Positions 3,001 to 44,433 of a stretch of 64,000 nucleotides of DNA are shown here, one piece after another (the stretch's first letter is position 1; each line of letters begins with the position of its first letter). A model generated the notes under the pieces. It had not been told where the DNA came from and ran no database searches. It saw only the letters and a list, made by a program, of their open reading frames with translations. Source of the DNA: a virus. Lineage: Duplodnaviria > Heunggongvirae > Uroviricota > Caudoviricetes. The stretch lies in the IMG/VR virus record IMGVR_UViG_3300020061_000005, one strand, 5' to 3'. The position numbers and the translations under genes are program-made.

Positions 3001-3708
3001 CTCGTCATCTCCGGGCCTGCGGTCTCCAGCCTCTCGGCGACCGGGCAGGTGTCGATCAGCGTCAACGGCAGCACGATCAGCATCGGCGTGCCCAGCCCGG
3101 TGACCAACACCAACGGGTATTTCCCCTATGGCGATCTGCAACTGACCACAGCGCAGGTGGGTCAAGCGTCTTTGTTGTTCGATCCGCAGAGCTTCGACAA
3201 TGTCGCCTTTGATCGCGTCCTGTTCCCGGTTTTCAACACCAACGCGACCAACAGCAGCGGATCCCACACTGTTTCGATCTGGATGGGCCTCTACAGTCGC
3301 AATGTGTCGACGCTCTCATTGGTGGGTAGCACCTCGGGGTCATTCGCAGCAACGCACTCCGGAACGGTGGGTAGTTACTCGCTGTTCTCCGGCATCAGGC
3401 ACTTCTCGGTGGGCAGCACTGCGACCGTCACTGCTGGCAAGTACTGGATGGCTGTCGTGTCGCGTAGCACTTCCGGTGGCGCGGATGGCACGTACGGCAA
3501 CGTGGTGCCATCGAACATGACCAGTGCACCTTTCTTCGGCATCTTCGGCTCTTCGGTGAATGCATCGCGGCAGTTCACGTTGGGCCAGGGATACTACAGC
3601 GCGACCACTAGCGGCATGCCAGCGAGCGTGGCGTTCAGCCAGATCGTTGGTAACAACGGTGGAGCGGTGCAACCCCAGGCTTTGTTGTTCGCTAACTCAA
3701 CTATTTGA
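1..3708 (+). CDS. Repetitive Ser/Gly/Thr/Asn-rich tail fibre/adhesin-like protein, 5'-partial
   Basis: Reading frame is open from nt 1, so the start lies upstream. About 14 degenerate repeats of the GISFGMSGSTRITAS...GGGGG type, then a non-repetitive C-terminal ~230 aa. High GC3. Confidence 0.6.
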   Translation, partial: DGYNILAAGTQTAASATTVNFANSNGITFGMSGSAQITASHNGLTSQSAQAFSAANGSSAFQTLSFGDSNGLSFSVSNGSIVGSYDQTNQTVGFYGVSNTTGDASAGTFDARTLSIQGAGIASVGMSNGSVIISVPAGGGGGDGANILAAGTQTATSLGTVVFSNSNGISFGMSGSTRITASVAAQTIGVYAVSNSTQGSSGTVDARTLSIQGAGIASIGFSNGSLIVSVPAGGGVGDGGNIIIAGTQTAVTLGSVSFADSNGISFGLSGSTRLTASHNGLTSQSNQALSAANGSFAFQTASFSNANGVSFGTSAGSAITASVAAQTAQTVGLYASSNTTGQSSSSTVDARSLSIRGVGNISVGLSGGQIIISGSGGGGGGVNLSAGANSISNALVVFSNANGVSFALNGSTITASHDGLTSQSNQALSAANGSFAFQTANFSNANGISFGTSAGSAITASHNALTTAAQSNHSHGNPTLALTNLTGTTASASNGLTLSLSAAAAGSLNLSAGTTSNNLTAVTFSNSNGISFGMNGSTMTASHNAATSNHSHGNPTLALTNLTGTTASASNGFTLSLSAAAAGGANSFTVYALSNTTVNSSGTIAASALSMRAYGVLSIGTSNGSLLFSTPDPEEFTQLSVGFSTNGNTAGNTGLVTGQMVLAGGANITLSGSTNGNSMTVSVIGGAGGGGGGVGVSAGTQSVSTGTMVFSNSNNVSFGMSGSSRITASAVVNVSGGTTSNNLSAIVFSNSNGISFGMNGSTMTASVGAGGAAGSISAGTTSVGLGQVVFSNSNGVSFGLNGSTITASAAAAGVATLSVFGTSNTTVNSSGSFDARSLTIRAYGIVSIGTSNGSLLLSSPDAVDFTQLSVGFSTNGNTAGNTGLFTGRVVFAGGANITLSGSSNGNSATISVIGGAGGGGGGVAVSAGTQSVSTGTLVFSNSNGIEFGMSGSSRITANATLDMYANGNTTGQSSSTSRSIQSVLFNGQGGVSVGYSVGSGLVISGPAVSSLSATGQVSISVNGSTISIGVPSPVTNTNGYFPYGDLQLTTAQVGQASLLFDPQSFDNVAFDRVLFPVFNTNATNSSGSHTVSIWMGLYSRNVSTLSLVGSTSGSFAATHSGTVGSYSLFSGIRHFSVGSTATVTAGKYWMAVVSRSTSGGADGTYGNVVPSNMTSAPFFGIFGSSVNASRQFTLGQGYYSATTSGMPASVAFSQIVGNNGGAVQPQALLFANSTI
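60..2900 (+). repeat. In-frame degenerate tandem DNA repeats inside the fibre gene
   Basis: Recurring aacggcatcagcttcggc...ggtggcggtgg units. Unit boundaries are approximate. Confidence 0.5.
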
Positions 3709-21447: not shown

Positions 21448-24400
21448 ATGGCCAATTTCTGGGACAACGATCCGGTTGAGGCAGAGCCGTGGGAAGCTGA
21501 TCCGGTAGTCGATCTCAACCCTGCGAAGAAGTCAGTGGAGGCGCCGATCGAGGCACCTTCGTATCTGGATGCGCTGAAGGAACGCACCGCGGATCTCGGC
21601 GACTCGCTGATGCACCTACCCGGTGAAGTGAAGAACCTGGTGGGGCCAACGGCACGCGAGATGGGCGCTGGTATCAACCGTGCTGGTTACGATCTGCTGG
21701 CCAAGTCGAAGGACTACCAGGCGCGGCGCCTGCGTGATCTCTCCATTCCGGAGCTGCGTGAAGGTGGCAACACGCCGGCCGATGTGGCAAGCGAAGAAGC
21801 GTTCAACGCTGAGATGAAATCCGGCGCTGCCGGTCGCGTCGCGCGTCGCGCCAACCTTGAACAGCAGGAGGCAATCCGTCCTGAAGCTGGTCCACTGGAA
21901 AGCGCCGCCGCGCAGGGCCTATCGAGCGCGGCGATCTCCGCGCCTGCGATCCTGGCGGCTGGACCGGTGATGGGCTCTGCGTTGCTCGGCGCCGGCACCG
22001 GTGGCCAGCGCTACACGCAGCTCCTGGACAAAGGTGTGCCGCAAGCTGCCGCGGCGAAGAGCGCGCTCATGATGGGCTCGCTTGAAGGGCTGACCGAATT
22101 CCTCCCCGGCCAGGCGCTCGTCAAGAACGTGCCGGGATTCTGGAAGCATCTGGGCGAGTTCATGGTGGCGGAGCTTCCAGGGGAGAACATCAACTCGGTC
22201 GCGCAGTTGATCGATGACTACCGCCTGCAGCTACGCGATGACGTCACCAAGGATGACTTGCTCAAGGCGATCGAGGACACGACGCTGCAGACCATTATTG
22301 CCGGCGGCGCGCAGACCGGTGCGGCTCACCTGCTGCAGCAAAGTGTCGATAAAGCGAACCAGGCGAAGCCAGCAGCGGGTAAGACTCCACAGTTCACGAT
22401 GCCCGAGCCGGTGGTGCCTGAGCCGGCGCCGCTGTCCCTGCCAGCGCCAGGTGCCACCTGGACACCGCCTGATGCTGATTTCGTGGTGGATGCGGCCGGC
22501 AACGCCGCCCCTCCTGGTGAGCAACAGAAGGCGCTGCCACACTTGCCGGAAGCGCCCACCGGACAGTTCGAAGCTGGACAGGAGGGTGTCCGACAGCTCA
22601 CTACACCAGAGGTTTCAGCCCGTGAGCAAGAAGAAGAGCGACGCCAATCACTTGGGCTCGGAAACGTCGAGCGAGTCCCAGGATCTGAGCCTGTTTCACG
22701 GGGAACGTCGCCGCAGGAGACCACCGACCTATCGGCGCTCCAAGCGGCCAAAGATGGCACTGCTACGCCGGAACAACTCGCCGGACTGAAGGGGTTCGTC
22801 AACGGGAGCGGCCAGATCCTACCCGCTGGCCGGCGCGCGCTCAAGAGCGCGCAAACCGAGCAGGTAAACGCAGCCGCCACGCTCGCCGGTCCAAAGGCGC
22901 GCATCACTGTAAAGCCACGTGAGGGTCGCTGGGTCGTCGCAATGGACGGCGAGGAGCAGGTGGTGGTCGACAGCGAAGCGCTCGCCAGGGACATCGCCAA
23001 GGAGGCCAGGCAGCACCTGTCGGGTCCGGTGGAAGTGCTGGGCCAGCAAGTGGAGCATCCAACCGATCCCACCGAAGGCCAGAAGGACGCCGGCAACTAC
23101 AAGAAGCCGACGATCAATTTCGCAGGGATGGAGATCGCGATCGAAAACCTCACCGGCTCAACCCGCCAGGGAAAGGATGCGAGCGGCAAGCCGTGGTCGC
23201 GCGTGATGCGCGCACCGTACGGCTACGTGAAGCGCACCGAAGGGGCTGATGGTGATCCGGTGGACGTGTATCTCGGGAAGAACCCGCAGTCCGACTCGGT
23301 GTACGTGATCGACCAACTCTCGCCCAATGGCAAAGCGTTCGATGAACACAAGGCCGTGATCGGAGTGAACAACCAGCAGGAGGCCGAGGCGCTGTACCTC
23401 AAGCACTACCCTGCCGGGTGGAAGGGCATGGGCGCGGTGACGCCGATGCCGGTTGCGAAGTTCAAGGAGTGGGCGCGCAGCGGCAACACCAAGGCGCCAG
23501 TCACCTGGAAAGATCCGGCGCTGCTGCCGAAGCGCTCGACCAAAACGCCACAGGCGCAGCACGACTCGATCCTGGAATTCATCTCGAAGACGAAGCTGCA
23601 CTCCGCTGAGAAGAACGGGCTCGACCTGGATGCGCTGGTGGCTGAAGGGCTCGATCCGAAAGAGCTGCGCGCCGCGAAGGGCCACGGGATCAATCGGCCG
23701 TTCACCAAGGGCGGTGCATCGCTCGATGCGATGGCTGAGATGCTGAATGATGCCGGCTACCCGGTGCAGAACGAGAAGGGCGACTACGACAAGAACAAGT
23801 TGCTCGATCTGATCACGAAGGAGCTGCGCACCGGATCGCGCGTCACCGCGCAGGCCAAGAATTTCGACATGGAGCTGGAGGATCTGTCGAAGAAGTACGA
23901 CCAGCCGGCCAAGGATCTCGACATTCCTGATGACCTGACCGGGATGACGGATGAGGAGCTGTCTGCGCTGTCGCGCCGGATCGATGAGATGAGTGCCAAG
24001 CTCGATGAGGCCGAGGCCAAGGTGGAGGCGACGCGCGAGCGCAAGTCAATCCAGGATGAGCCGATGTTCCAGCGCGACAAGAGCGCTAAGGATCGCGTGG
24101 ATGAAGAAAAAGAGCGGCGCGCCGAGAAGAATCTGCTGATCCAACACAACCTGACGGCGGCGAATCTGCTGCACTCCGTGAAGATGGGCGGCATCCCGAT
24201 TCCTTCGCTTGCGATCACGAAGAAGGACCAGGGTCTCACCAACTTTGGTGAGATCACCTTGCTGGGTCCGGTCCAGATGGCCGATCCGCGAGGCTACGCG
24301 CGCACTCGTGTGTTCGGTGCGGATGTGTACTCGCCGCGGTATCCCAGCGTCTCGTACTCGGTGAGCAGCAAGGCTGTGGATCGACTGTCCGCGTTGATCG

Positions 24401-27400
24401 CGCCGCACGCGAAGCGATTGGGGCATCGTGAATTCATCGGCGGGGATGAGCTGAAGGATGGTCCGCGGGAGTTGGAGAACACTGCTGCCGTGATGGATAT
24501 GTTCCTTGCCAGTAAGGGCATCACCGTCAAGGTAGATCCGAAGGAGGAGCAGTCTTACGTGGCCACCGAAGCGCTGCGCAAGCGCATCCGCACGGAGGGT
24601 ATGGAGGAGGAGTTCAGCGATTATGTCTCCGAGCTGTTCGCCTCGCTGTCGCCGGCCGAGCGGCTGTTCCAGGGATTCACCTACTCGGGTAATCGCCGCT
24701 ACAAGCCGCACACCCTGGCCAATGTGATGGCGATGCTGAAGAAGGAGCTGCGCGGCGGTGAAGGCTTCAACTACGGTGTGGGATCGCTGCGCTCGAAGTT
24801 CACGCCGCAATTCAGTAGCCTCAAACAGATCAGCGAGAATCAGGATCGCCTGCTGACCGAAGAAGAATTCAAAGCCGTCAAGGAGCAGATCGATACTGAG
24901 TTTTGGGAAGTCGCTGGCAAGCTCGCGCCGTACAGCGGGCGCGGCAAGGAATTCGGCTGGGGCGACACCGTGATCCACATCATGGAGGACGCCGCGAAGA
25001 TGGGGATCGGTCGTGCGCTCAACGAGTACAGCATCGAAGATGTCTCCGATGACGTTCAGAACGACATGCGCGAGTTCATGGGCAAGCTGCGCACGCTACC
25101 CACGGAGTACTTCGAAGCGAAGATCATGCGCGAGGTGGATCTGGCCGAGTTCGCGCACGCCGTGGCGCCCAAGGGAACCTCACAGAAGGCGCTCGATGCG
25201 CTGGCAGCGCGTGGTGTCAAGGTCACGTTCTACAAAAAGGGTGATGATGCGGATCGGCGCCGAGCCATCCAGCAAGCAGCCGAATCATCTTCCAATGTGC
25301 TGTTCAAGAAAGGTGAGGCGCCGCCAGCCGGTGCGCGCACGCTCACTAGTCGAGATATTCGCGATGAAGTGAACCGCATCCTCAAGGAGTTCAAGACCCG
25401 GCCGCGGCTGCTGGTGGTGGACAACGGCAACCAATTCCCGCCGGATCTGCTGGCGCAGATGAAGGGCGGTCGCTCCGATCCCAACGAGGTGCACGCGGTC
25501 CAGTGGAACGGCGGCATCTACATCAACGCCTCTAAGTACACCAACCTGGAGGATGTGTTCGACACCGTGATGCATGAGACGGTGGTTCACTTCGGGCTGC
25601 GCTCGGTGCTGGATATCGACACGCACACCGCGATCCTCGATGGCATTGCCGCGAGCCAGCCGATGGCGGTTCGTCGCATGGGCCAGTTGGAGTACGGTAG
25701 CAAGTTCAATTGGGAAAACCTGCAGCAGCGCCGCATCGCAGCCGAAGAGGTGCTGGCCTACTACGCACCGCTGTACCTGAAAAATAAACCGGTGCCTGGC
25801 GCGCTCAAGCAGTGGCTGAAGCAGTTCATCGACGCGATCAAGGCGTTCATCGCGCGCGTTCGCGGCACGAAGCCCGACACGATGGTGTTGCCTGATGACT
25901 TCGATAAGAAGGCGATGAACAACATCATCGACTCGCTGCACGACTACCTGAAGGGCGGCAAGCAGCCCGACTACGTGGAGACCGCAGAGCAGGCGATGGC
26001 ACAGAAGCCAGCGCCCACCTTCTACTCCGCGCTCACTCGCTCCGCGATGGAAGCCAAGCGCACCATCGGCACCGCGGCGGAGTGGCTGAACACGCTGCGC
26101 AACATGCCTGGGGTCAAGAAGGAAGAGATGGAGTGGTCCGGCCTGGAGGAGTGGATCAACGGCCTGGATCATCGCGCCACGCAAGCGGAGGTGGTCGACT
26201 ACCTGCAGAAGAACGAGATCGAGGTGCAGGATGTCGTGAAAGGCGCCGAGTTCGAAGGACAGGACACGCCAGCGCAGGCGTTGAAGCGCCAGAACGATGA
26301 TTTGGTGGTGAAGATCAGCGCGCTGGGATTTGCCCCGAGCATGTATGACGGCACCTCGGACATGTTTCTCTACCGCAACGATGTCAATGAAACCTACCGC
26401 CACGTCGGCACCAACGTTGGTCGGTGGAAGGATTTTGCCACCGGTGCATGGGCACCTGATGCGGTAGCTAAACTCGCCGATGAGTTGCGTGCCGTGCGCC
26501 AGGAGATGATCAACGTGTCCTGGAAGCGCGACCGCAACGCGGCCACGCAGTACGACCAGTACACCACGCCAGGCGGTGAGAACTACCGCGAGCTGCTGAT
26601 GACGCTGCCAGCGCAGCCGTCGCCTGATGCTGGACCGCGCGGCTGGGGAGATACCGGTGGCGGCACCTACGATACGGTCAACTATCACTCCTCGCATTGG
26701 GATGAGCAGAACATTCTGGCGCACGTCCGCTTCGATGAGCGCACCGACGCCGATGGCAAGCACGTGCTGTTCATCCAGGAGATCCAGAGTGATTGGCACC
26801 AGGCTGGGCGCAAGCGCGGCTACAACGAACCGGACACCATGCAGAAATACATGGAGGCCAAGAAGAGGAAAGGCCAAGCCCGTGAGGAAGCTGCTGCCGC
26901 ACTCAGGCGCAACGACTATCTTGGTTTCGACCAAGTGGTGGATGCAGCGGAGGCGGTGCGTTCGCATCCTGACTGGCTGCAACGCTGGCACGTAGAGGAT
27001 GCCGCAGATGTCGCCGCTATCCAGGAGTACGTCGATGCGCACCAGGAAGTGGAGCGCTTCGGCAAGATGAGTGATGTGCCAGATGCTCCCTTCAAGACCA
27101 CCTGGCCGGAGCTGGCCTTCAAGCGAATGATCCGGTGGGCTGCGCAGCATGACTTTGATCGTATCGCTTGGACGCCAGGGCAGATCCAGGCAGATCGGTA
27201 CGACCTGAGCAAGCAGGTTGGCAGCGTGATCGCCACCAGGGAACGCAGCGATACTGTCTGGCTGGAGATCCGCAAACCAAACGGTGCGTTGATCGACCGC
27301 GGTGAACGGCAGATGTCGCGCCTGGAGGAGATGGTCGGGCAAGACCTGGCGCGCAAGATCGAAGCGCTGCCAGTTGGTGAGGCTCGTAAGTTTACCGGCC

Positions 27401-30252
27401 TGGATCTGCGTGTCGGCGGCGAGGGCATGATCGGCTTCTACGACAAAATCTTGCCGCAGACCGTCAACAAGATGGTGAAGCGCTTCGGTGCGAAAGTCGG
27501 CACGACGAACATGTCGGTTGGCGAATTTCGCGGTGCGGTGAGTGGCCAGATGGTTATGGAGGATCTTGGAATCCCGGAAGAACAACGCCGCGACTATTGG
27601 GGTGGACTTGAGTCTGTCCGGCGCAGCGAGTTGATGAATGAATATCGAAGCAGGGCACAGACTCGCACGCAGCCATTTCACTCCGTCGATGTCACCGACT
27701 CCATGCGCGCCTCTGCGATGGAAGGCCAGCCGATGTTCCAGCAGCGTCACAACGAGGAAGCGGTGGAGCGCACCCGGCCGGTGGGCGAGCAGATCGCCGG
27801 CTACAAGGCAGCGGCACAGCGCGCCATTGATGCCTGGAACCACAAGGTTGGCTGGCTGTGGGGACCGCTGGGCAAGCTGCCCGAGAAGGACAACTATCTG
27901 CGGCTGCGTTACCGAACACTCGGTGACCTAACGGAGATTCGCGTGATCTCGCGCGATATCTTCGACACACTGATGAAGTCCACACCGGAGGACAGCCAGG
28001 CGGCTTATGAGTACCTGACCAACCGCGAGGCGAAGGCAGACACCATCCAGGATCAGAAGATCCGGGCCACCGCAGAGCGCGTGAAGGCGATGTTCGATGT
28101 ACAGGGCCAGCGCCTGGTCGACGCCGGACTGATCCCGCAGGAGTCCTTCGATACTTACGCCGGCCAATATCTGCCGCGGCTGTACCTGAAGCACATCCTG
28201 GGCGACCAGCTGCACGCAGCGATGGGCTCGGGCAAGAAGATGTCGAACCTCGGGCAGACCAAGAAGCGCGACAACACCATTCCCGAAGAGGTCCGCAAGG
28301 TGATTCTCGGGCAGATCCAAGACCCGGCGTTCCTCGCCTCCTTCGGCGTGTCACGCACCATGCGGGATCTGGCGATGATGGATTTCCTCTCCGAAGTGTC
28401 GAAGAACGAGGCATGGACGCCCCCTGAGATGCTGGTCGAGTGGAATGGCCGCAGGGTCTCGCCGTTCTGGATGCACAGCGAGGCGGTACGGCTGCGCAAG
28501 ATGGCCGACTTCATGAAGGGTCACGAGCTGGCTGGTAAGGCGCGTGCCGTGGCGGATCGCATGGACACGCTGGCGAACGCGGCCATTGCGAGGCTTGAGC
28601 GTGCGGAGCTGGATGGCTTCAAGCAGATCCCAGATACACCCTCCTACGGCGCGCTGCGCGGACTGTGGGTGCGCAATGAGATCTACGAAGACCTGGTGGG
28701 TGCGGCGAACTTCATCGATCCGAACTCCGCGGAAGCCTGGATGCGCAAATGGTCCGGCAAGATCACGCGCGCCTGGAAGACCAGCAAGGTGGCGCTCAAC
28801 CCGCCTTCGCACTTTCGCAATATGATGGGCAACTCGATCATGATGCAGTTGGGTGGCGTGCCTTTCCGCACGCAGCCGCTGCGCATGGTGCAAGCGATCA
28901 ACTCGCTGCGTCACAAGGATCGCTTCTACCAGGTTGCCAAGAAGTACGGCATGTTCGAAGCCACCTTCGCGAACGTGGAGCTGGCGCGCATCGCGGATGA
29001 GTGGTTGTCGCTGCAGGACACCAAGGGCTCGCATTTTGGCAAACTGAATGCGATGGCCGGACGTGTGACGAATGCGATCGGCGATCTCTACCAGTTCGAG
29101 GAGGCGCTGTTCAAGCTGATGAAGCTGCGCCACAACATTGAGCAAGGCATGGAGGAAGGGGACGCGATGATCGACGCCCACAAGTGGCTGTTCGATTATT
29201 CCCTGGTGCCGCGCTGGGTTCGCTGGATGCGCAATGCGCCGTTGGGCGTGCCATTCCTCACCTACACCTACAAGGCGGTCCCGCGGATGCTCGAAGCCGC
29301 GATCCTCACCCCGCATCGGTACTTGCCGTACATCGCTGCGGTTTATGCCTTGAAGGAGCTGCTGGAGTATGCCTTCGATGTCGATGACGATGATCTGAAG
29401 AAACTCAAGCAGGCATACCCGAGTTACATGGAGAACAAGGGCGGCCTGATGCTGCTGCCCACGCGCGACGCCAACGGCAACCTGCAGCTCTTCGACATGG
29501 GCTATATCGTTCCCTGGGGCATGGCCGCAGATGTCGCCCGCCAAGGCGAGCACATGGAAGGTGGGATGATCCTTGACTCGCTTGGCATTATGAGTGGACC
29601 GATCGCCGACAACATCGCCGCCTGGAAGACCGGCATCGATCCCTTCACCCGCAAGCCGATCGTGAACCCGAGTGACAGCACGAAGGATCAGATGAAGCAA
29701 CGGCTGTGGTACGCATGGTCGCTCGCCGCACCGCCATTCCTCACTCCCTCTGGTGCTGGCGGCAAGCTCTACGACTACGCCACTGGCGCGGTCGACAAGC
29801 GCACTGGCGAGCAGAAGCTGACCGGCGGCCAGGTGGCGGCACGCTTCTTCGGCCTCACGATCTATCCGGTGAATCCACAGAAAAGCCGTGACACCAACAT
29901 CTACTTCATGCAGAAAGAGATCGATGAGATGCAGTTCCGGGAGCGGCAGCTCACGCGCGACAAGAACCTGGATGCAGCCGGCAAGGCCGAGATCCACAAA
30001 GCGTTTCGCGAGATGGTGAAGCAGAAGCGCACTGAGCTACAGCAGTACAAAAAGGACTCGGAGGTTCACCCGAACCTGCGAAATCAGGAGATAGAGGACA
30101 AGGTTGGAGCCTTGATCGATGGGAAACGGAAGCCCGAAGCGGTAAAAGCGCTGCGTGATGCCGGCTACCCAGCGCTCGCCGGACTACTTGAGGAAATGCC
30201 AGCTCGACACCGGCCGGTGGTTGCGCAGGCACTTCAACAAATGATGGCGTAG
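21448..30252 (+). CDS. Giant multi-domain protein (2934 aa); polyvalent or ejection protein-like
   Basis: Single 8.8-kb ORF with high GC3 throughout. It embeds an inorganic pyrophosphatase-like signature, DGDPVDV...FDEHKAVIGV...YLKHYPAGW. It also carries an HW(D/E)EQNILAH...FIQEIQSDWHQ block. Confidence 0.7.
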   Translation: MANFWDNDPVEAEPWEADPVVDLNPAKKSVEAPIEAPSYLDALKERTADLGDSLMHLPGEVKNLVGPTAREMGAGINRAGYDLLAKSKDYQARRLRDLSIPELREGGNTPADVASEEAFNAEMKSGAAGRVARRANLEQQEAIRPEAGPLESAAAQGLSSAAISAPAILAAGPVMGSALLGAGTGGQRYTQLLDKGVPQAAAAKSALMMGSLEGLTEFLPGQALVKNVPGFWKHLGEFMVAELPGENINSVAQLIDDYRLQLRDDVTKDDLLKAIEDTTLQTIIAGGAQTGAAHLLQQSVDKANQAKPAAGKTPQFTMPEPVVPEPAPLSLPAPGATWTPPDADFVVDAAGNAAPPGEQQKALPHLPEAPTGQFEAGQEGVRQLTTPEVSAREQEEERRQSLGLGNVERVPGSEPVSRGTSPQETTDLSALQAAKDGTATPEQLAGLKGFVNGSGQILPAGRRALKSAQTEQVNAAATLAGPKARITVKPREGRWVVAMDGEEQVVVDSEALARDIAKEARQHLSGPVEVLGQQVEHPTDPTEGQKDAGNYKKPTINFAGMEIAIENLTGSTRQGKDASGKPWSRVMRAPYGYVKRTEGADGDPVDVYLGKNPQSDSVYVIDQLSPNGKAFDEHKAVIGVNNQQEAEALYLKHYPAGWKGMGAVTPMPVAKFKEWARSGNTKAPVTWKDPALLPKRSTKTPQAQHDSILEFISKTKLHSAEKNGLDLDALVAEGLDPKELRAAKGHGINRPFTKGGASLDAMAEMLNDAGYPVQNEKGDYDKNKLLDLITKELRTGSRVTAQAKNFDMELEDLSKKYDQPAKDLDIPDDLTGMTDEELSALSRRIDEMSAKLDEAEAKVEATRERKSIQDEPMFQRDKSAKDRVDEEKERRAEKNLLIQHNLTAANLLHSVKMGGIPIPSLAITKKDQGLTNFGEITLLGPVQMADPRGYARTRVFGADVYSPRYPSVSYSVSSKAVDRLSALIAPHAKRLGHREFIGGDELKDGPRELENTAAVMDMFLASKGITVKVDPKEEQSYVATEALRKRIRTEGMEEEFSDYVSELFASLSPAERLFQGFTYSGNRRYKPHTLANVMAMLKKELRGGEGFNYGVGSLRSKFTPQFSSLKQISENQDRLLTEEEFKAVKEQIDTEFWEVAGKLAPYSGRGKEFGWGDTVIHIMEDAAKMGIGRALNEYSIEDVSDDVQNDMREFMGKLRTLPTEYFEAKIMREVDLAEFAHAVAPKGTSQKALDALAARGVKVTFYKKGDDADRRRAIQQAAESSSNVLFKKGEAPPAGARTLTSRDIRDEVNRILKEFKTRPRLLVVDNGNQFPPDLLAQMKGGRSDPNEVHAVQWNGGIYINASKYTNLEDVFDTVMHETVVHFGLRSVLDIDTHTAILDGIAASQPMAVRRMGQLEYGSKFNWENLQQRRIAAEEVLAYYAPLYLKNKPVPGALKQWLKQFIDAIKAFIARVRGTKPDTMVLPDDFDKKAMNNIIDSLHDYLKGGKQPDYVETAEQAMAQKPAPTFYSALTRSAMEAKRTIGTAAEWLNTLRNMPGVKKEEMEWSGLEEWINGLDHRATQAEVVDYLQKNEIEVQDVVKGAEFEGQDTPAQALKRQNDDLVVKISALGFAPSMYDGTSDMFLYRNDVNETYRHVGTNVGRWKDFATGAWAPDAVAKLADELRAVRQEMINVSWKRDRNAATQYDQYTTPGGENYRELLMTLPAQPSPDAGPRGWGDTGGGTYDTVNYHSSHWDEQNILAHVRFDERTDADGKHVLFIQEIQSDWHQAGRKRGYNEPDTMQKYMEAKKRKGQAREEAAAALRRNDYLGFDQVVDAAEAVRSHPDWLQRWHVEDAADVAAIQEYVDAHQEVERFGKMSDVPDAPFKTTWPELAFKRMIRWAAQHDFDRIAWTPGQIQADRYDLSKQVGSVIATRERSDTVWLEIRKPNGALIDRGERQMSRLEEMVGQDLARKIEALPVGEARKFTGLDLRVGGEGMIGFYDKILPQTVNKMVKRFGAKVGTTNMSVGEFRGAVSGQMVMEDLGIPEEQRRDYWGGLESVRRSELMNEYRSRAQTRTQPFHSVDVTDSMRASAMEGQPMFQQRHNEEAVERTRPVGEQIAGYKAAAQRAIDAWNHKVGWLWGPLGKLPEKDNYLRLRYRTLGDLTEIRVISRDIFDTLMKSTPEDSQAAYEYLTNREAKADTIQDQKIRATAERVKAMFDVQGQRLVDAGLIPQESFDTYAGQYLPRLYLKHILGDQLHAAMGSGKKMSNLGQTKKRDNTIPEEVRKVILGQIQDPAFLASFGVSRTMRDLAMMDFLSEVSKNEAWTPPEMLVEWNGRRVSPFWMHSEAVRLRKMADFMKGHELAGKARAVADRMDTLANAAIARLERAELDGFKQIPDTPSYGALRGLWVRNEIYEDLVGAANFIDPNSAEAWMRKWSGKITRAWKTSKVALNPPSHFRNMMGNSIMMQLGGVPFRTQPLRMVQAINSLRHKDRFYQVAKKYGMFEATFANVELARIADEWLSLQDTKGSHFGKLNAMAGRVTNAIGDLYQFEEALFKLMKLRHNIEQGMEEGDAMIDAHKWLFDYSLVPRWVRWMRNAPLGVPFLTYTYKAVPRMLEAAILTPHRYLPYIAAVYALKELLEYAFDVDDDDLKKLKQAYPSYMENKGGLMLLPTRDANGNLQLFDMGYIVPWGMAADVARQGEHMEGGMILDSLGIMSGPIADNIAAWKTGIDPFTRKPIVNPSDSTKDQMKQRLWYAWSLAAPPFLTPSGAGGKLYDYATGAVDKRTGEQKLTGGQVAARFFGLTIYPVNPQKSRDTNIYFMQKEIDEMQFRERQLTRDKNLDAAGKAEIHKAFREMVKQKRTELQQYKKDSEVHPNLRNQEIEDKVGALIDGKRKPEAVKALRDAGYPALAGLLEEMPARHRPVVAQALQQMMA

Positions 30253-35314: not shown

Positions 35315-35863
35315 CTAGAAGGATGCACCGCGCCTGCCCCTCTTGATGGGAATCCGTTCCATATAATCCTGTAGCGCTTGAGAATTTCGCAGCGCTGCGT
35401 ACGCGCGAGCCAGATCACGAAGCACGGTGCGGTAAGTCAAATGATACTTATCGGCTATCTGCTTGTAGGTGAGCTTTTCGAAGGCGTGCTCCATCAACAG
35501 GTACGCCTGTCGCGGTGGAAGCGTCTCCAATGCCCGATACAACACCACCTCGAACTCCTCGGCTGAGAGAATGTCATCTGGCGTACCGCGCTCGATCTCA
35601 ATGTCCTCCAGTCCCTCATCATCATGTGGATGGGCGTTGCGGCTGCGCTCACGCCATTCATTCGCGACGTTGGCAGCGATGCGGAAGAGATAGCTCTGCG
35701 GGTTAGTGATCAGCACATCATCGCTGTAGCGCAGGACGCGAAGGAACACTTCTTGGGCAAGATCATCTATGTCGGCGGTGGGAATGGAGGAGCGAGTAGC
35801 GAGCCACCGTTTTATCGGGGCTTGCCACGTGGAGAACAGTGCAGCCAGGTTATTGGCCGGCAT
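35315..35863 (-). CDS. ECF-type sigma-70 family RNA polymerase sigma factor
   Basis: Region 2 is DDLAQEVFLRVLRY...YLFRIAANVANEWRER. Region 4 is LPPRQAYLLMEHAFEKLTYKQIADKYHLTYRTVLRDL. Start taken at the internal Met to avoid overlap with Lar. Confidence 0.7.
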   Translation of the reverse strand: MPANNLAALFSTWQAPIKRWLATRSSIPTADIDDLAQEVFLRVLRYSDDVLITNPQSYLFRIAANVANEWRERSRNAHPHDDEGLEDIEIERGTPDDILSAEEFEVVLYRALETLPPRQAYLLMEHAFEKLTYKQIADKYHLTYRTVLRDLARAYAALRNSQALQDYMERIPIKRGRRGASF

Positions 35864-36128
35864 TCCCCTTATCCTCTGCTCTCGTTTCCATCCTTGCTCT
35901 CGCGCGTTCCTGTTCAACTGGGCAGTGCGGAGCATGCCAACCTGGTCCTAAAGTCCGCGGTCCATCACAACAATTCTCCACGTACACTGTTGCCCTGGTG
36001 TTCCAGCGCTTCAGCGATTGAGCCGTGGCGCCACAGGTCTCGCATTCAGGCCCGCGCTCGCCTTCGCCATTGAGCCAGCCGTTCGGATCGACGCTGCCAC
36101 CACAGAACGGACAGTCGAGGTCACTCAT
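35850..36128 (-). CDS. Lar-family restriction alleviation protein-like
   Basis: Begins MSDLDCPFCGG...CETCG. GGAGAGGAAG RBS. Confidence 0.5.
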   Translation of the reverse strand: MSDLDCPFCGGSVDPNGWLNGEGERGPECETCGATAQSLKRWNTRATVYVENCCDGPRTLGPGWHAPHCPVEQERARARMETRAEDKGNAGQ

Positions 36129-39068: not shown

Positions 39069-39092
39069 CGGCGCGAGTATTACCTGTGTTAC
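39069..39092 (-). promoter_or_regulatory. Phage promoter-motif instance (TTGCGG-N-GGTAACAC-AGGTAATAC) upstream of AAA+ ATPase operon
   Basis: + strand reads GTATTACCTGTGTTACC, between the PurA-like stop and the AAA start. Confidence 0.45.
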
Positions 39093-40216
39093 CTCAGATC
39101 CGCAACCGAATCTCGCGTTTGACCGTCGCTGGTGTAGCTGGCGTACGGTTGCAGTGCGTCTGGCATCGGTAACTGATCGATGTGCGAGACCGCGAGGCGG
39201 CAGAGCACACGGTTGCCGATCGCATCGTTCGCGGTGTTGATGATCATTTGCTTCACGTCCAAATACCCGAAACGCAGCGTGCCCTGGAATTCGTGCGGTG
39301 CGTTGGTGTCATCGGCGAATTTCATCTCAGGTTCTTCGCCTGGCAGCGGCCCTGCACCGTGGCGTGTGAGATAGGTGCGTGTGCAATAGATCGCCTCCAA
39401 TTCATCGATTCCCCATTCGTTCGCGAGCGTCGCCACGTTCTTGGATCCGGTGTTGGAGCGGGTGAGGTGCGGGAAGTCCGCCGTGTTGTTCTGATCCAGC
39501 AGCAGCCCCTGCGCGCCTTCGAATACAATTCTCTGTGGTCGGTTATGCTCATTCGGCGGCGGTACCAAGAGCACTCGCTGGGTGAACATCATCACGTCAT
39601 ACAGGAACCCATCGATCGCATCCTTCGAGTTCCATTGCTTGGAGTACTGGTTGAAAACGTCTGGCTCTATCCCAGCGATTCCCAACTCGAAAGAGCTGTG
39701 TGCTTGGATTGCGGCAATCAGGTGGCGCACCCCGGTAGTGCTACGGTAAAGATCACGCACCGTTAGCGGGATCTTGCGGTGCCGCTCGATGGTCTGGTTG
39801 AAGCCAACCCCGCAGCTCCCGTGTCGGGCTTCGCCGCGGTGATTCTCCTGGAGCTGGTTCACCATCATGTCCCACGGCGTCGTCACCATGCACTCGCCGT
39901 CGACAAACACACGTGGCCAGTTGTTGGTGAAGCAGCCCTTGCCGTGGCCTTCCAGCTCCACGCTCTCCTGGTTGAACAGGATGGGATTCACCACAAAGAA
40001 TCGGCTCAGGTACGTGGGCACGTTCAGGAACGTCCCCGAGCCGAAGTGATGGAACACATGGCGGCGGCCATCGGGAGTCACGACGGTGTGCCCTGCCTGC
40101 GCGCCTCCGTTGAAGCGCACGACAAGATCGACTGTGTGCCTTGAGCACAAGTAGTCGACCATCTTTCCCTTACCCTCGTCGCCGTAGTTGGCGCCGATGA
40201 CCGCCCATGCCTTCAT
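39089..40216 (-). CDS. Adenylosuccinate synthetase family protein (PurA paralogue; candidate PurZ-like)
   Basis: GANYGDEGKGKMVDYL, GGAQAGHTV and FEGAQGLLLD...TRHGAGPLPGE match PurA. 375 aa, shorter than canonical PurA. ATGA-coupled to the VWA gene. Confidence 0.75.
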   Translation of the reverse strand: MKAWAVIGANYGDEGKGKMVDYLCSRHTVDLVVRFNGGAQAGHTVVTPDGRRHVFHHFGSGTFLNVPTYLSRFFVVNPILFNQESVELEGHGKGCFTNNWPRVFVDGECMVTTPWDMMVNQLQENHRGEARHGSCGVGFNQTIERHRKIPLTVRDLYRSTTGVRHLIAAIQAHSSFELGIAGIEPDVFNQYSKQWNSKDAIDGFLYDVMMFTQRVLLVPPPNEHNRPQRIVFEGAQGLLLDQNNTADFPHLTRSNTGSKNVATLANEWGIDELEAIYCTRTYLTRHGAGPLPGEEPEMKFADDTNAPHEFQGTLRFGYLDVKQMIINTANDAIGNRVLCRLAVSHIDQLPMPDALQPYASYTSDGQTRDSVADLR

Positions 40217-41144: not shown

Positions 41145-41624
41145 TTACCTTGAAAATTTGCGACTCTCAGCGGGAGTCGTGACCGCTTTGGCTCGGTTCC
41201 AGCCATAAACCTTGATGCGACGATATGCCGTCTGGTACTTAACGACGCCATGCTTTCGCACGGCGCGGGTCAGTGTCAATCTCTCGCCGCCGATTCGGAC
41301 CATCACGTTGGAGCGAGAGTTATTGTTCTGCTCTTCCTTTGAGGTGAAGCGACAATTGCCGGGTGAGTAGTTGCCATTATTGTTTTCGCGATCGAGCGTG
41401 TGGCCGCTCGGGATAGTCCCCTGCTGATCGCACCATCTCAGGAACGCATGAGGGCGGCTTCGCCAGGCGCAACATACACTGATGCCGCGAGCACCATAGC
41501 GGTTGTAATCCTTAGAGGAAGTGACATGGCAGCGCTGCACCATCGCGTGCCAGGTGCCGTAGAACCTATGGTGAGACAGGCCATGCGTCCGATTACGCTC
41601 CGCTAGATCAAGTCTTTGCCACAT
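41145..41624 (-). CDS. HNH/AP2-like DNA-binding or homing endonuclease-like protein
   Basis: YGTWHAMVQRCH...YGARGISVCCAW pattern, as in phage HNH/AP2-type proteins. Confidence 0.4.
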   Translation of the reverse strand: MWQRLDLAERNRTHGLSHHRFYGTWHAMVQRCHVTSSKDYNRYGARGISVCCAWRSRPHAFLRWCDQQGTIPSGHTLDRENNNGNYSPGNCRFTSKEEQNNNSRSNVMVRIGGERLTLTRAVRKHGVVKYQTAYRRIKVYGWNRAKAVTTPAESRKFSR

Positions 41625-42639
41625 AGATATCTTCTGCTGTGAGCTTCAGCTCCACGAACTTGCGCGGGCCGTAGCTCTCTTTCAAAACTCTCGACCAATC
41701 GGCGTACTCCTCGAAGGCGGGAAGATACGCGGTGCTGCGAAGCCAGTGAACCAGGGGCTTCGGATACTTCATGGAAAGGAGGCGCGAACCGATGGTGTCC
41801 CCTAGCAGCTCGCGCCCCGTGGCCTTGATCAACTCGGAGTTCATCCTGTCGATCGCCTTCTTGTCCGGCAGCAGCGGCGTCCCGTATTGAACGGTGCGCG
41901 GTGGCAGTGCAATCAGCCTTTCCCCTTCGCGCCTGGCGTACCACCAGCCACCAAAAAGCGCCGCGTCGTGATCGGCCGGGTGAATAAACACGTTACGCGG
42001 CGAAATATCGCAATGCACCAAACCGGCCAGCTTCAGGTAACAGTTCAGGTTGTAGAGGCAGCTCAAGATCCAGGCGACATGGCGCTCCTCGATCTTGCCG
42101 CCAAGGTGCGTCAGGACGTCGCTCAAGCGCAGATAGGCTGGGTTCTTCTCGATGACCAGGTAGTAGCCGGTCTTCACCTGGATGAGCCGCTGGAGCCTTG
42201 GGAGGTGCCTGCTGTGCTCTGCCTTCAGGTGGCCATCGGCGAAGGTAAAGTGCCGCTCCATGTGGTCCTGGGCGACGCGCACCAGGTCGGCATATTCATC
42301 ACGGATGTAGTACGCCAGCACTGATTTACCAATGTAGGCGCGTCCCAGCTCGAACTCCTCGGATTTGAGATACCCGAAGGCGAAGTTATGGCCGCGCACG
42401 TCGGCGAACATGAGCTGCCCCATCCCGCGCCAGGTGCCGCCGTCGATCGCATCCATGGCGCGATCGTAGAGCGCGTTGATGTGCGCCATGACGGCCGGGT
42501 TCACGGAGTTGGTGTCCGGGTGCCACTTGGAGCGCAGGCGCTGCCATTGGGCTTTGGCGGCCGGCCGCACCCCGGTGAACAGCCGCTCGGGCATGTCCAC
42601 CGGGATCGCCAGGATCTGGGCTTCGGTCAACTCCGTCAT
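41608..42639 (-). CDS. J-domain / protein-kinase-like fusion protein
   Basis: N-terminal RLRSKWHPDTN...INALYD is a J domain with HPD. Downstream HCDISPRNVFIH looks like a kinase catalytic loop. Confidence 0.5.
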   Translation of the reverse strand: MTELTEAQILAIPVDMPERLFTGVRPAAKAQWQRLRSKWHPDTNSVNPAVMAHINALYDRAMDAIDGGTWRGMGQLMFADVRGHNFAFGYLKSEEFELGRAYIGKSVLAYYIRDEYADLVRVAQDHMERHFTFADGHLKAEHSRHLPRLQRLIQVKTGYYLVIEKNPAYLRLSDVLTHLGGKIEERHVAWILSCLYNLNCYLKLAGLVHCDISPRNVFIHPADHDAALFGGWWYARREGERLIALPPRTVQYGTPLLPDKKAIDRMNSELIKATGRELLGDTIGSRLLSMKYPKPLVHWLRSTAYLPAFEEYADWSRVLKESYGPRKFVELKLTAEDIYVAKT

Positions 42640-42870
42640 ACGCTGATCGGAACGTTCAGCTCGCGCTGCTTGGCGTTGATCTCTTCCTTGGTGAAAGGAC
42701 CGAAGTCGTAGTCCGCTGGGTCATCGCTTTGGCAGGTGGCGAACCACTCCAGGCAATGCCAGCAGCGACACGAATACTGGTGGTTGCTCGCCACCAGCGT
42801 CACCTCGCGCTCGCGCGGCGTCATGCCTTCCAGCAGCTCGTCCGCCATCTCTTGAATCTGATCGGCCATG
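42636..42870 (-). CDS. Small Cys-rich protein
   Basis: ATG at 42870. SCRCWHC...C cluster. Stop overlaps the next start. Confidence 0.4.
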
Positions 42871-42871
42871 G

Positions 42872-43024
42872 TTACCTCGATGTCGAAGGTGGCGAAGACT
42901 GCTCGATGGTCTGCGGTGCCCGCGCCTTCTTGTGTTTCGTGGCACTGAGCGCTATCACAACCAGGATGCCAACGATCACGACTGTGACCAGCAGCTCGAT
43001 GAGGGTGAAGCCGCGGCGCTTCAC
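42872..43024 (-). CDS. Prepilin-like micro-protein (50 aa)
   Basis: GTG start overlaps the SPFH stop (GTGA). Encodes MKRRG|FTLIELLVTVVIVGILVVIA, a type IV pilin class III signal. Sits inside the longer track ORF 42872..43135. Confidence 0.35.
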   Translation of the reverse strand: MKRRGFTLIELLVTVVIVGILVVIALSATKHKKARAPQTIEQSSPPSTSR

Positions 43025-43815
43025 TTGGGCGGCTCGACACTGATGAAGGGAATCGCGCCATTGCCACCGCTCCAGGACGGGACCGTGCCGTTCCATTTCT
43101 GGATGGCGGCGCGCTGCACCTGCAGGCGTTCCCACTCGATCAGTCCCTGGTTCTCGCGAATGGCGCGCGCTCGATCAGCCATCGCTTCGGCGTCTGCCTT
43201 AGCGCGGGCTTTGTTCTGCTCACCCTCCTGCACCACCTCAGAGGTCTTGTTCGCAGCAGCGAGCGCATCCTGGGCAGCAACCACCTTGCGCTCGACCGAA
43301 TTCTCATAGCCATCATCGAAGTCGATGTTGGTCACCGCAAGGCCGGTCACCTGGACGTGCTTCGGTGCCAGCACCTTGCGCACCTCATCGTACATCTCGG
43401 TGATCGCGCGGCCACGGTTCGATATCAGCTCGGCCGCCTCGTACTTGCCGGCGATGCTCTTGATGCCATCGAACACGTCCTGGCCCACCAGCTTGTCCGC
43501 CCATTCGGTGCCCACCTCGGCCAGCACAGCCGGCGCAGCCGCTGGCTCCAGGCGATAGTTCACGGTCACATCGAGGTCCGCTTTCTGGATGTCCTTGGTG
43601 TAGACGGGCGTCTTGAATTCCCACTTCAGCACGCGCACGTCCATCTCGGTGATGTTGTCGGTGATCGGGTTGTACCAGTGCAAGCCTTCCCCGAGTGATT
43701 CTGGGTGCACCTTGCCATAAGTGGTCTGCACACCGCGGTGGCCGGTGTCGACGATCTCGAAGCCGCAGCCGGTCAGGGCGAAGGCAAGCAGGCAAAGCAC
43801 GATCAGTCGCGTCAT
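43021..43815 (-). CDS. SPFH/band-7 (HflC/prohibitin-like) lipoprotein
   Basis: Lipobox LTGCG. SPFH core, then an Ala/Glu/Gln-rich coiled-coil. Confidence 0.7.
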   Translation of the reverse strand: MTRLIVLCLLAFALTGCGFEIVDTGHRGVQTTYGKVHPESLGEGLHWYNPITDNITEMDVRVLKWEFKTPVYTKDIQKADLDVTVNYRLEPAAAPAVLAEVGTEWADKLVGQDVFDGIKSIAGKYEAAELISNRGRAITEMYDEVRKVLAPKHVQVTGLAVTNIDFDDGYENSVERKVVAAQDALAAANKTSEVVQEGEQNKARAKADAEAMADRARAIRENQGLIEWERLQVQRAAIQKWNGTVPSWSGGNGAIPFISVEPPK

Positions 43816-43819
43816 ACGA

Positions 43820-44026
43820 TTACTCCTTGAACAGATTGAAGATGTCGAACAGGATCTGCCGGCCAGGCTTGGTCATGATTGCCAGCGGCCAGATCAGCAG
43901 CATTTGGAACTCACGCAGGAAGCGCTTGCCATCGCGCGTGAACATCACCCGCGTGAGCGAGAAGCACAGCGCCAGCAGTTGCATGGTGATGTACAGCTCC
44001 AGCGCCGTGATCAGCAAACGGTTCAT
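43820..44026 (-). CDS. Small membrane protein
   Basis: Two hydrophobic helices. Directly upstream of the SPFH gene. Confidence 0.4.
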   Translation of the reverse strand: MNRLLITALELYITMQLLALCFSLTRVMFTRDGKRFLREFQMLLIWPLAIMTKPGRQILFDIFNLFKE

Positions 44027-44433
44027 TTGTTTAGCTCCTGTGCTTCGTAGTCGGCGTTAGTGTGAGAGTCATCACACCCATAAGGCTCACGAAGCCATTT
44101 GATGTGGGCCTTGATCTCGCGAACCACGTGGCTCACGGGGCGATCTGACTGGTAATAGAAGATCTCCTCGGTGCCAATACCGCCGAAGAACGAACGTGCA
44201 TCAGTGATGTCGTAATTACCCTTTTTATCGAAATTCAGCGTGAAGCCGCGGCGCCTGAACCACGGGTCCAGCCCGCAATGGCCAGCCGCGCAGGCGATGG
44301 TTCCGCACTCGGTGAGGTTGCCCCAAATACCCATGTCCCAATGATTGCGCTTGACGTGCGCCGGTAGTGCCTGCAGGACGCGCGCTGCGTTCTCCCAGCG
44401 CTCGATGATTAGTGGACCGGTGGCCGTTTTCAC
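44023..44433 (-). CDS. Hypothetical protein
   Basis: GTG start. Contains CGTIACAAGHC. Confidence 0.45.
   Translation of the reverse strand: MKTATGPLIIERWENAARVLQALPAHVKRNHWDMGIWGNLTECGTIACAAGHCGLDPWFRRRGFTLNFDKKGNYDITDARSFFGGIGTEEIFYYQSDRPVSHVVREIKAHIKWLREPYGCDDSHTNADYEAQELNK

Follow-up and report, generated by a model that had tools for sequence, protein, structure and literature searches.

A headless prepilin-type micro-gene linked to a prohibitin-like SPFH lipoprotein gene in a probable envelope-directed module of phages

The window, as the whole 64,000-nucleotide stretch of tailed-phage DNA analysed here is called (IMG/VR record IMGVR_UViG_3300020061_000005), carries three adjacent minus-strand genes encoding a small membrane protein of 68 amino acids (aa), a 264-aa prohibitin-like SPFH (Band 7) lipoprotein and a 50-aa prepilin-type protein without a globular head, which is referred to below as the micro-pilin. 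The micro-pilin open reading frame (ORF) is very likely a genuine gene, and the combination of small transmembrane (TM) protein, SPFH protein and facultative micro-pilin is, at the same high level of confidence, a genuine and recurrent phage module. This three-gene module recurs in many unrelated phage contigs and probably acts on the host cell envelope. The phage SPFH family (phrog_200) and headless phage pilins were known already, while their linkage is new in that no description of an SPFH-prepilin pairing was found in the literature. An earlier note on this DNA had called the pairing unusual, which holds in so far as it is recurrent and undescribed, although phage micro-pilins as such have precedent.

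Layout of the three-gene cassette

The genes for the small membrane protein (44026..43820, from the ORF list), the SPFH lipoprotein (43815..43021, from the ORF and its Pfam match) and the micro-pilin (42872..43024, 50 codons plus stop) followed one another head to tail in that order, and all of their parts described below are likewise on the minus strand. The overlap of the lipoprotein stop codon with a GTG, reported in the earlier note as GTGA, was confirmed at 43021..43024, where the TGA of the SPFH gene (43023..43021) shares two bases with the GTG of the micro-pilin gene (43024..43022). A 4-nt stop/start overlap was also present in the related contigs L004 (GTGA), L006 and L007 (both ATGA), and suggests that translation of the two genes is coupled.

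The same phage of approximately 77 kb was assembled in several datasets, and the ENA and Logan assemblies were identical to the window over 6 kb around the cassette. A blastn search of the cassette DNA against 50,697 phage records returned no match. An RNA or regulatory element in place of a gene was ruled out, as scans of the cassette stretch revealed no Rfam family, no excess RNA structure and no terminator or promoter that accounted for the sequence.

The micro-pilin gene

Read from its GTG, the micro-pilin frame is VKRRGFTLIELLVTVVIVGILVVIALSATKHKKARAPQTIEQSSPPSTSR up to the stop codon and is laid out as VKRRG, the predicted cleavage site, FTLIELLVTVVIVGILVVIA and then LSATKHKKARAPQTIEQSSPPSTSR. 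The basic leader of 5 residues, (M/V)KRRG (43010..43024), ends in the Gly(-1) of a predicted prepilin-peptidase site, a class III signal, and is followed by the mature N-terminus FTLIE, with Phe(+1) and Glu(+5), and a hydrophobic alpha1-N helix of about 24 residues (42938..43009). The polar tail of about 20 residues, TKHKKARAPQTIEQSSPPSTSR (42875..42937), consists of a basic stretch and then a Q-x-[IV]-[ED]-Q...PPS motif. By hydropathy, the hydrophobic span covered residues 4-31 and 19-21 residues lay past the hydrophobic helix. Leader and helix together made up 26 residues with 24 more after them, in agreement with the figure of about 25 in the earlier note, and the type IV prepilin leader and helix recognised there scored above the cut-offs of both Pfam N_methyl PF07963 (37 bits against 21.2, matching residues 1-26) and TIGR02532 (37.1 bits against 16.3). 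The prepilin-type motif occurred a single time across the six frames of the 64-kb window. Judged from the sequence, the leader would be cleaved by a prepilin peptidase and the tail is predicted to be placed in the periplasm.

Among the PHROGs, the micro-pilin matched the small N_methyl families phrog_13280, 11263 and 10597 and the 'pilin' family phrog_3433. Values below 1e-10 in an exhaustive phmmer search were reached by its own cluster only, and tblastn of the 50-aa peptide against phages returned nothing, where the low-complexity filter probably masks the helix. The micro-pilin was not assigned to the structural pilins or pseudopilins, as it lacks a head and scored far below the cut-offs of all NCBIfam equivalogs (GspH 29 against 80, GspG 27 against 89).

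The arrangement of Gly(-1), Phe or Tyr(+1), Glu(+5) and helix was common to 11 homologues, the leaders of which were mostly 4-8 residues long with a net charge of +2 to +3 (10 residues and +1 in L288), while tails ranged from 12 to 29 aa among all micro-pilins. In each of the four closest contigs, which shared the gene order YqaJ-RecT-~138aa-~70aa-SPFH, a prepilin-type ORF of 48-49 aa began at the SPFH stop, and the conservation on which the earlier note had made its reading depend was thus borne out in all close relatives, with the ORF at an unchanged junction. The SPFH proteins of L004/L005, L006 and L007 were 66-70% identical to that of the window. The micro-pilin of L004/L005 starts with GTG and had been called as an ORF with a Pfam N_methyl match, and those of L006 and L007 start with ATG and had been left uncalled. 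The four close micro-pilins shared 39-46% protein identity (approximately 55% divergence) at a constant mature length of 44-45 aa, and their dN/dS of 0.4-0.6, at saturated dS, was comparable to that of the conserved small-TM partner. The polar tail motif was common to the window, L004, L007, L006 and L161. Distant loci with a micro-pilin carried SPFH proteins 40-43% identical to that of the window at a GC content of 45-56%. An ATG start was found in L018, a strong Shine-Dalgarno sequence precedes the ATG in L104 and L102, a TTG start is probable in L101 from a reading of the junction sequence, and in L161 the micro-pilin lies upstream of the SPFH gene.

The micro-pilin had been called by the JGI gene caller (P0036), and the ENA and Logan gene callers left a 150-nt gap in its place. 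As two of the three callers missed the ORF, similar phage micro-pilins are probably under-annotated. These omissions, together with the short length and the GTG start, are what could be expected of a chance spacer ORF or the remnant of a decayed full-length pilin. Such an origin is extremely improbable and, on the sequence comparisons, effectively refuted by conservation, as the ORF is kept in relatives with an ATG start, four lineages with about 55% amino-acid divergence and different downstream genes all have a mature length of 44-45 aa, dN/dS is below 1, the profile scores exceed curated cut-offs and the downstream 77-aa protein has no pilin-family match in Pfam, PHROG or NCBIfam.

Linkage of micro-pilin and SPFH genes

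In a forward test, a hidden Markov model (HMM) of the micro-pilin was used to search 205 loci with an SPFH gene (approximately 1 Mb), taken as all of their stop-to-stop segments, and every strong match was located within 300 nt of an SPFH gene. In the nearest SPFH clade, defined by an SPFH HMM score of at least 300 bits (99 loci), the small TM protein was present in 64 loci and the micro-pilin in 8, and no micro-pilin was found in the loci with SPFH scores below 300 bits. These counts suggest that the constant pair is the small TM protein and SPFH, with the pilin as a facultative member.

In a reverse test, 80 viral contigs were retrieved by the pilin N-terminal pattern alone, and an SPFH gene was present on the same strand within 3 kb in 13 of them. 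This neighbourhood was concentrated in the short proteins, with 12 of the 19 ORFs of mature length up to 100 aa adjacent to SPFH against 1 of the 65 longer ones (Fisher p=5e-9, and 2e-6 once near-duplicates were collapsed). A third sample, drawn from a search of 5.8 billion proteins, yielded five short polar-tail N_methyl proteins, three of which adjoin Band_7 genes in phage-like contigs (L285, L288 and L296). The SPFH proteins of pilin-positive loci fell into at least five groups with 20-30% mutual identity, carried either lipoprotein or N-terminal TM anchors, and occurred with the pilin gene in both orders. Beyond the close relatives, the SPFH genes beside which the micro-pilin recurred were 20-45% identical. 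Tail type tracked the SPFH group, being polar and Q/E/P-rich in A, B and E and a small Cys-containing domain in D.

The micro-pilin might instead act alone as a decoy, whether as a competing peptidase substrate, a chain terminator or a mimic of the pilin pool for PilS/PleC-type kinases, with the proximity to SPFH reflecting a shared accessory-gene neighbourhood. This is rather improbable, as linkage across such divergent SPFH groups (at least five, 20-30% identical), in both orders and often with a start/stop overlap, would be difficult to account for if the two genes were functionally unrelated, and tail type follows the SPFH group. Independent action would, however, accommodate L286 and L287, two phage-like contigs in which the polar-tail micro-pilin has no SPFH neighbour inside 3.5 kb, the 7 of 19 short viral pilin ORFs that have no SPFH neighbour, the truncated PilA family of Pseudomonas phages described without SPFH (PMC12952977) and the bioactivity of a pilin TM peptide by itself (PMC7196804).

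A family of SPFH-linked pilin-like proteins of 80-94 aa was observed in L242, L246, L248, L249, L274 and L224/L225 at about positions 3001-3270. It carries a small Cys domain, GING.TESRCIEGYKFV.G..G.ARQ.LDE.GKGV.C, and is intermediate between the micro-pilin and a normal pilin. In L296, a short phage-like contig, a CsrA-family gene (165-368) is located immediately upstream of the micro-pilin/Band_7 pair. Fusions of SPFH with pilin were considered and rejected, as the 10 apparent internal phmmer matches that were examined (in proteins of 245-335 aa) were tandem-pilin read-throughs with two N_methyl motifs each, most likely a product of gene calling (P0157, P0160, P0163, P0164, P0167, P0173, P0174, P0180, P0182 and P0186).

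The SPFH lipoprotein and the small membrane protein

The 264-aa protein matched Pfam Band_7 (E=2e-32, 113 bits, gathering score 23.6), phrog_200 'lipoprotein' (5e-59) and, among PDB sequences, prohibitins (4e-37) and HflC (1e-10). An AF2 model of the monomer (pLDDT 82) comprised the SPFH domain, a 73-residue helix (168-240) and a conserved flexible C-terminus, where a W-x-G-x-x-P...PF segment is conserved, and a Foldseek search with this model returned the human prohibitin complex first (9e-18), followed by stomatin, HflK/C, erlin and QmcA. By sequence and predicted fold the protein is closest to prohibitin. Scores were far below the cut-offs for HflK/HflC orthology (34.9 bits against 159.4 for TIGR01933 and 27 against 134.4 for TIGR01932). 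Of the description as an HflC/prohibitin-like lipoprotein in the earlier note, the prohibitin likeness and the LTGC lipobox are therefore retained and the HflC part is not, and since the protein is no HflK/HflC orthologue, the analogy drawn there with HflKC and lambda cII is without specific support.

A lipoprotein signal peptide (43765..43815) was identified by a regular-expression search, with the lipobox L-T-G-C following a hydrophobic signal, and its conservation was examined in 14 homologues, in which Cys17 was invariant and G18 and F19 nearly so. The lipobox suggests that the SPFH domain faces the periplasm. The gene is under strong constraint by its dN/dS of 0.06-0.21. Relatives were found only in metagenomes, from 70% down to about 31% identity. 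In bacterial genomes the best match was 43% identical, and all matches were metagenome-assembled genomes without the micro-pilin, thereby giving no clue to a host or prophage.

The 68-aa protein, described in the earlier note as having two TM helices, has one clear TM helix by hydropathy (about residues 4-30), and the second segment, the short conserved hydrophobic VIWPLAL, is too short for a confident TM assignment. The family motif is VIWP[LM]AL..GRK, and in more than 60 loci an HMM built from four copies had its match immediately 5' to the SPFH gene. Its dN/dS was 0.24-0.52. No Pfam, PHROG, NCBIfam or PADLOC match was found for this protein. Most other pilin-positive groups have an ORF of 49-66 aa with two hydrophobic segments beside SPFH, without detectable homology to the 68-aa protein. 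Nothing related to NfeD (PF01957) was detected in Pfam, PHROG and NCBIfam scans of the 68-, 50-, 77- and 136-aa products.

Genomic setting and neighbouring genes

The window represents a tailed phage that encodes a terminase and virion proteins, one of them 2934 aa long. No close relative was found among isolated phages, and its terminase was most similar to those of Roseobacter phages (38% identity). Co-transcription of the cassette within a long same-strand early/recombination operon is strongly supported. This operon contains recombination and nucleotide-metabolism genes, with RecT on one side of the cassette and a kinase-like gene on the other. The cassette was not attributed to lysis, as the sole lysis-like call (LysC, weak) is approximately 10 kb away and the 264-aa SPFH protein is no spanin. 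PADLOC returned no match for the three cassette proteins.

Directly downstream of the micro-pilin, a 77-aa Cys/His-rich protein (42636-42869, minus strand; CxC...HC...C), zinc-finger-like by eye, is encoded by a gene whose ATG at 42869 begins 2 bases past the micro-pilin TAA and has GAGG just upstream. No Pfam, PHROG or NCBIfam match was found for it, and it was not seen at the matching position in relatives. A split pilin, with the 77-aa gene as its frameshifted remainder, was considered and rejected given the absence of matches in these three databases and the presence of an ECF sigma factor at this place in relatives. In those relatives the ECF-type sigma factor gene directly follows the micro-pilin (L004 4954-5463, L006 4958-5458, L007 2823-3323). 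The only sigma-factor gene seen in this region of the window (35315-35935, minus strand) is located some 7 kb downstream within this operon, and between it and the micro-pilin are the 77-aa Cys-rich gene, the kinase-like gene, an HNH endonuclease gene and a PurA/PurZ block.

The kinase-like protein (343 aa, 41608-42639, minus strand), encoded two genes downstream of the micro-pilin, had weak matches to Pfam Pkinase (0.064), phrog_3043 'kinase' (1e-4) and PADLOC PD-T4-6 (2e-4). The operon also includes a gene of the adenylosuccinate synthetase family (375 aa, 39089-40216, minus strand), which matched phrog_1211 '2-aminooxy adenylosuccinate synthetase' (PurZ-type, 2e-62) and was approximately 40% identical to Vibrio and Rhizobium jumbo-phage genes, and its P-loop GDEGKGK is presumably the PurA form. 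Between RecT and the small-TM gene, a 136-aa protein (44023-44433, minus strand) with the motif CGT[IV]ACAAGHCG[LM]DPWF was restricted to the close clade and had no family match apart from two weak matches to PHROGs of unknown function. The 2934-aa ORF (21448-30252, plus strand) resembles transglycosylases/endolysins over about residues 510-690, is similar to DarB-like and virion structural PHROGs, and probably encodes a giant virion-associated or ejected protein.

Comparison with known systems

A truncated phage protein family corresponding to the N-terminal 60 residues of PilA was noted by Sztanko et al. 2026 (PMC12952977), where its function was untested and it was proposed to enter the pilus or inhibit pilus assembly. 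Compared by description, the window peptide shares with this family its phage origin, its conserved N-terminal helix and its lack of a head, and differs in being shorter (50-aa precursor, 45 aa mature) and in having a polar Pro-rich tail instead of alpha1-C. The truncated PilA family occurs in lytic phages with a proposed role as a block on pilus-dependent phages, and an SPFH link is unmentioned for it (PMC12952977), whereas the window peptide is SPFH-coupled. The same study described prophage FimU-like minor pilins that exclude phages binding the pilus tip (PMC12952977), but these P-FimU proteins are full-length, functional pilus parts, unlike the window peptide. A tblastn search with the N-terminal 60 aa of PAO1 PilA against phages returned normal-length pilin-like genes only. 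Vibrio phage 033B has a 157-aa pilin-like ORF with no SPFH gene nearby.

The Geobacter PilA-N (61 aa mature) is likewise a very short pilin, of type IVa style and essentially alpha1, and its operon also carries the gene for PilA-C, a separate partner protein. It has, however, a full alpha1 helix and belongs to a dedicated chromosomal pilus system, whereas the window peptide is of phage origin, has 16 residues fewer and is partnered by an SPFH scaffold rather than by a beta-sheet 'head' protein. We know of no assembling pilin shorter than Geobacter PilA-N (61 aa). Many 71-aa database matches resemble this short pilin in size. A prepilin-type family of 59-62 aa was also observed on many contigs of Stutzerimonas/Pseudomonas chromosomes (P0079, P0107, P0092, P0128 and P0111), with the pattern ...QFNEYRAKANDSTAQAD.KN..TVM.AAQ and an amphipathic alpha1-C tail unlike the polar tails of the phage proteins, and may represent a bacterial short-pilin class.

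A bare pilin TM helix can suffice to act in the inner membrane, as with the Caulobacter CIP, a 17-residue pilin TM peptide that signals via the kinase PleC, lowers pilus function and cut pilus-phage susceptibility by 77% (PMC7196804). The CIP differs in being derived from the host's own pilin and in its signalling role, without phage origin or SPFH partner. The type of pilin is also different, type IVc (Flp-like) for Caulobacter PilA and GFTLIE for the window peptide.

The SPFH protein resembles prohibitin, HflK-HflC and QmcA-YbbJ in its domain, its predicted architecture and its operon with small membrane partners, and like HflK/C it is predicted from its lipobox to face the periplasm. It is anchored by a lipobox Cys and not a TM helix, and its partners are the 68-aa protein and a pilin-type peptide and not an NfeD-domain protein. 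The SPFH and micro-pilin genes of the window belong separately to phrog_200 and to the small N_methyl PHROGs, where their co-occurrence as a module is unannotated. A cyanobacterial paper on PilD suppressors mentioned neither FtsH nor SPFH. The small phage proteins PfsE of Pf phage, which is said to be a tiny inner-membrane peptide, Tip, Aqs1 and PlzR reportedly shut down host pili and bring about superinfection exclusion. By their descriptions these bind PilC, PilB or PilZ, and none is pilin-like or SPFH-linked.

Possible functions of the module

We tentatively favour a reading in which the headless pilin is the bait or address of the module and the SPFH protein its scaffold. As expected for its family, the SPFH protein would oligomerise into a ring or cage that covers a membrane patch, like prohibitin and HflK/C. 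The host prepilin peptidase would cut the leader and N-methylate Phe1, and the N-terminus of the micro-pilin would be cytoplasmic while its tail would reach into the periplasm, where the SPFH domain is predicted to lie as well. The alpha1-N helix could then bind inner-membrane partners of pilin helices, for which the pilin or pseudopilin monomer pool, the assembly platform, the peptidase or a pilin-sensing kinase are candidates, while the tail would tie this bait to the scaffold of SPFH and small TM proteins. Assembly of the host type IV pilus (T4P) or type II secretion system (T2SS) would thereby be jammed or sequestered early in infection, and the loss of pilus receptors would lead to superinfection exclusion and keep progeny from adsorbing to doomed cells. 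In support of an early-acting function, the cassette lies among early genes at approximately 10 kb from the lysis-like genes. G(-1), T(+2) and E(+5) are invariant, and the retention of a Glu in the TM helix, where a charged residue would otherwise be costly, suggests that it is used. Precedents are the bioactive Caulobacter peptide (PMC7196804) and the FimU-like and truncated PilA proteins of phages (PMC12952977) described above.

Our analysis leaves interference with pili or the T2SS as a possible function, held somewhat less firmly than the bait-and-scaffold reading as a whole. Membrane remodelling, superinfection exclusion and interference with the T4P or T2SS, the possible roles named in the earlier note, are hypotheses at this stage. 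Its most specific form, in which the trio is an inner-membrane machine with a prohibitin-like cage and a headless pilin bait capturing the pilin/pseudopilin pool or the assembly platform, is on the unlikely side.

Several observations weigh against pilus interference. The invariance of G(-1), T(+2) and E(+5) in 8 micro-pilins is partly built in, the searches having been motif-driven. The mature length of 45 aa is below that of a full pilin alpha1 helix of approximately 53 aa (PMC6201914), which makes stable incorporation into a filament doubtful. Neither a prepilin peptidase gene nor any other gene of a T4P or T2SS was found within 10 kb of the cassette, and the nearest terminase from an isolated phage is only 38% identical, which leaves a piliated host an assumption. 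The scaffold evidently works without the pilin, given that 91 of the 99 loci of the nearest SPFH clade have none. The micro-pilin was also absent from the isolated phages with SPFH genes that were examined (Burkholderia CSP3, Citromicrobium RXM, Manatee Spring siphovirus, Fusobacterium phiFN37, Acinetobacter nACB2, Rhizobium B1VFA and Rhizobium RHph_N1_10), and hence no culturable carrier was found. Deletion of all nine SPFH genes of P. aeruginosa left swimming and swarming, the latter partly pilus-dependent, unchanged (PMC13086221), and host SPFH proteins are thus without a known pilus link.

A membrane-protection or proteostasis module without any pilus link, although doubtful in its own right, is nearly as likely as pilus interference. 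Here a lipid-anchored SPFH cage with small TM subunits, NfeD-like in function, would keep the inner membrane stable or adjust the activity of an FtsH-type protease during infection, which could for instance guard against premature lysis or the triggering of abortive infection, and the pilin-type signal would be a convenient route to a peptide with its N-terminus inside and its C-terminus outside. The optional nature of the pilin beside a core of small TM protein and SPFH is consistent with such a role, as is the partnership of the closest folds, prohibitin and HflK/C, with AAA proteases; a bacterial SPFH protein with small membrane partners reportedly takes part in membrane-stress repair. It leaves unexplained, however, why the full class III signal, with Gly(-1), Phe or Tyr(+1) and a buried Glu(+5), is kept in every lineage, and why short pilin-like ORFs are enriched beside SPFH. 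Furthermore, no NfeD domain was detected by Pfam in the cassette, the SPFH protein is no HflK/HflC orthologue, and no evidence was found for a protease client of the window protein.

The surroundings of SPFH genes in isolated phages also bear on membrane protection. Two unrelated tiny single-TM ORFs (47 and 37 aa) precede the prohibitin gene of Rhizobium phage B1VFA (L293 2705-2961), and rIIB in Acinetobacter phage nACB2 (L292) and rIIA in Rhizobium phage RHph_N1_10 (L294) are located approximately 1.5 kb or less from SPFH. Both count in favour of membrane protection and hint that micro membrane proteins and membrane-integrity genes are general companions of phage SPFH genes.

If the trio is indeed such a cage-and-bait machine, superinfection exclusion or host takeover would gain a new mechanistic class, and an SPFH scaffold of a prokaryotic virus would have its first defined client. 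The role of SPFH proteins in prokaryotes has long been puzzling, and a compact phage module with two small partners offers a tractable entry to it. Should the headless pilin block the T4P or T2SS, two major virulence machineries would have a minimal inhibitor that can be genetically encoded, and a mechanism would be added to phage-versus-phage competition.

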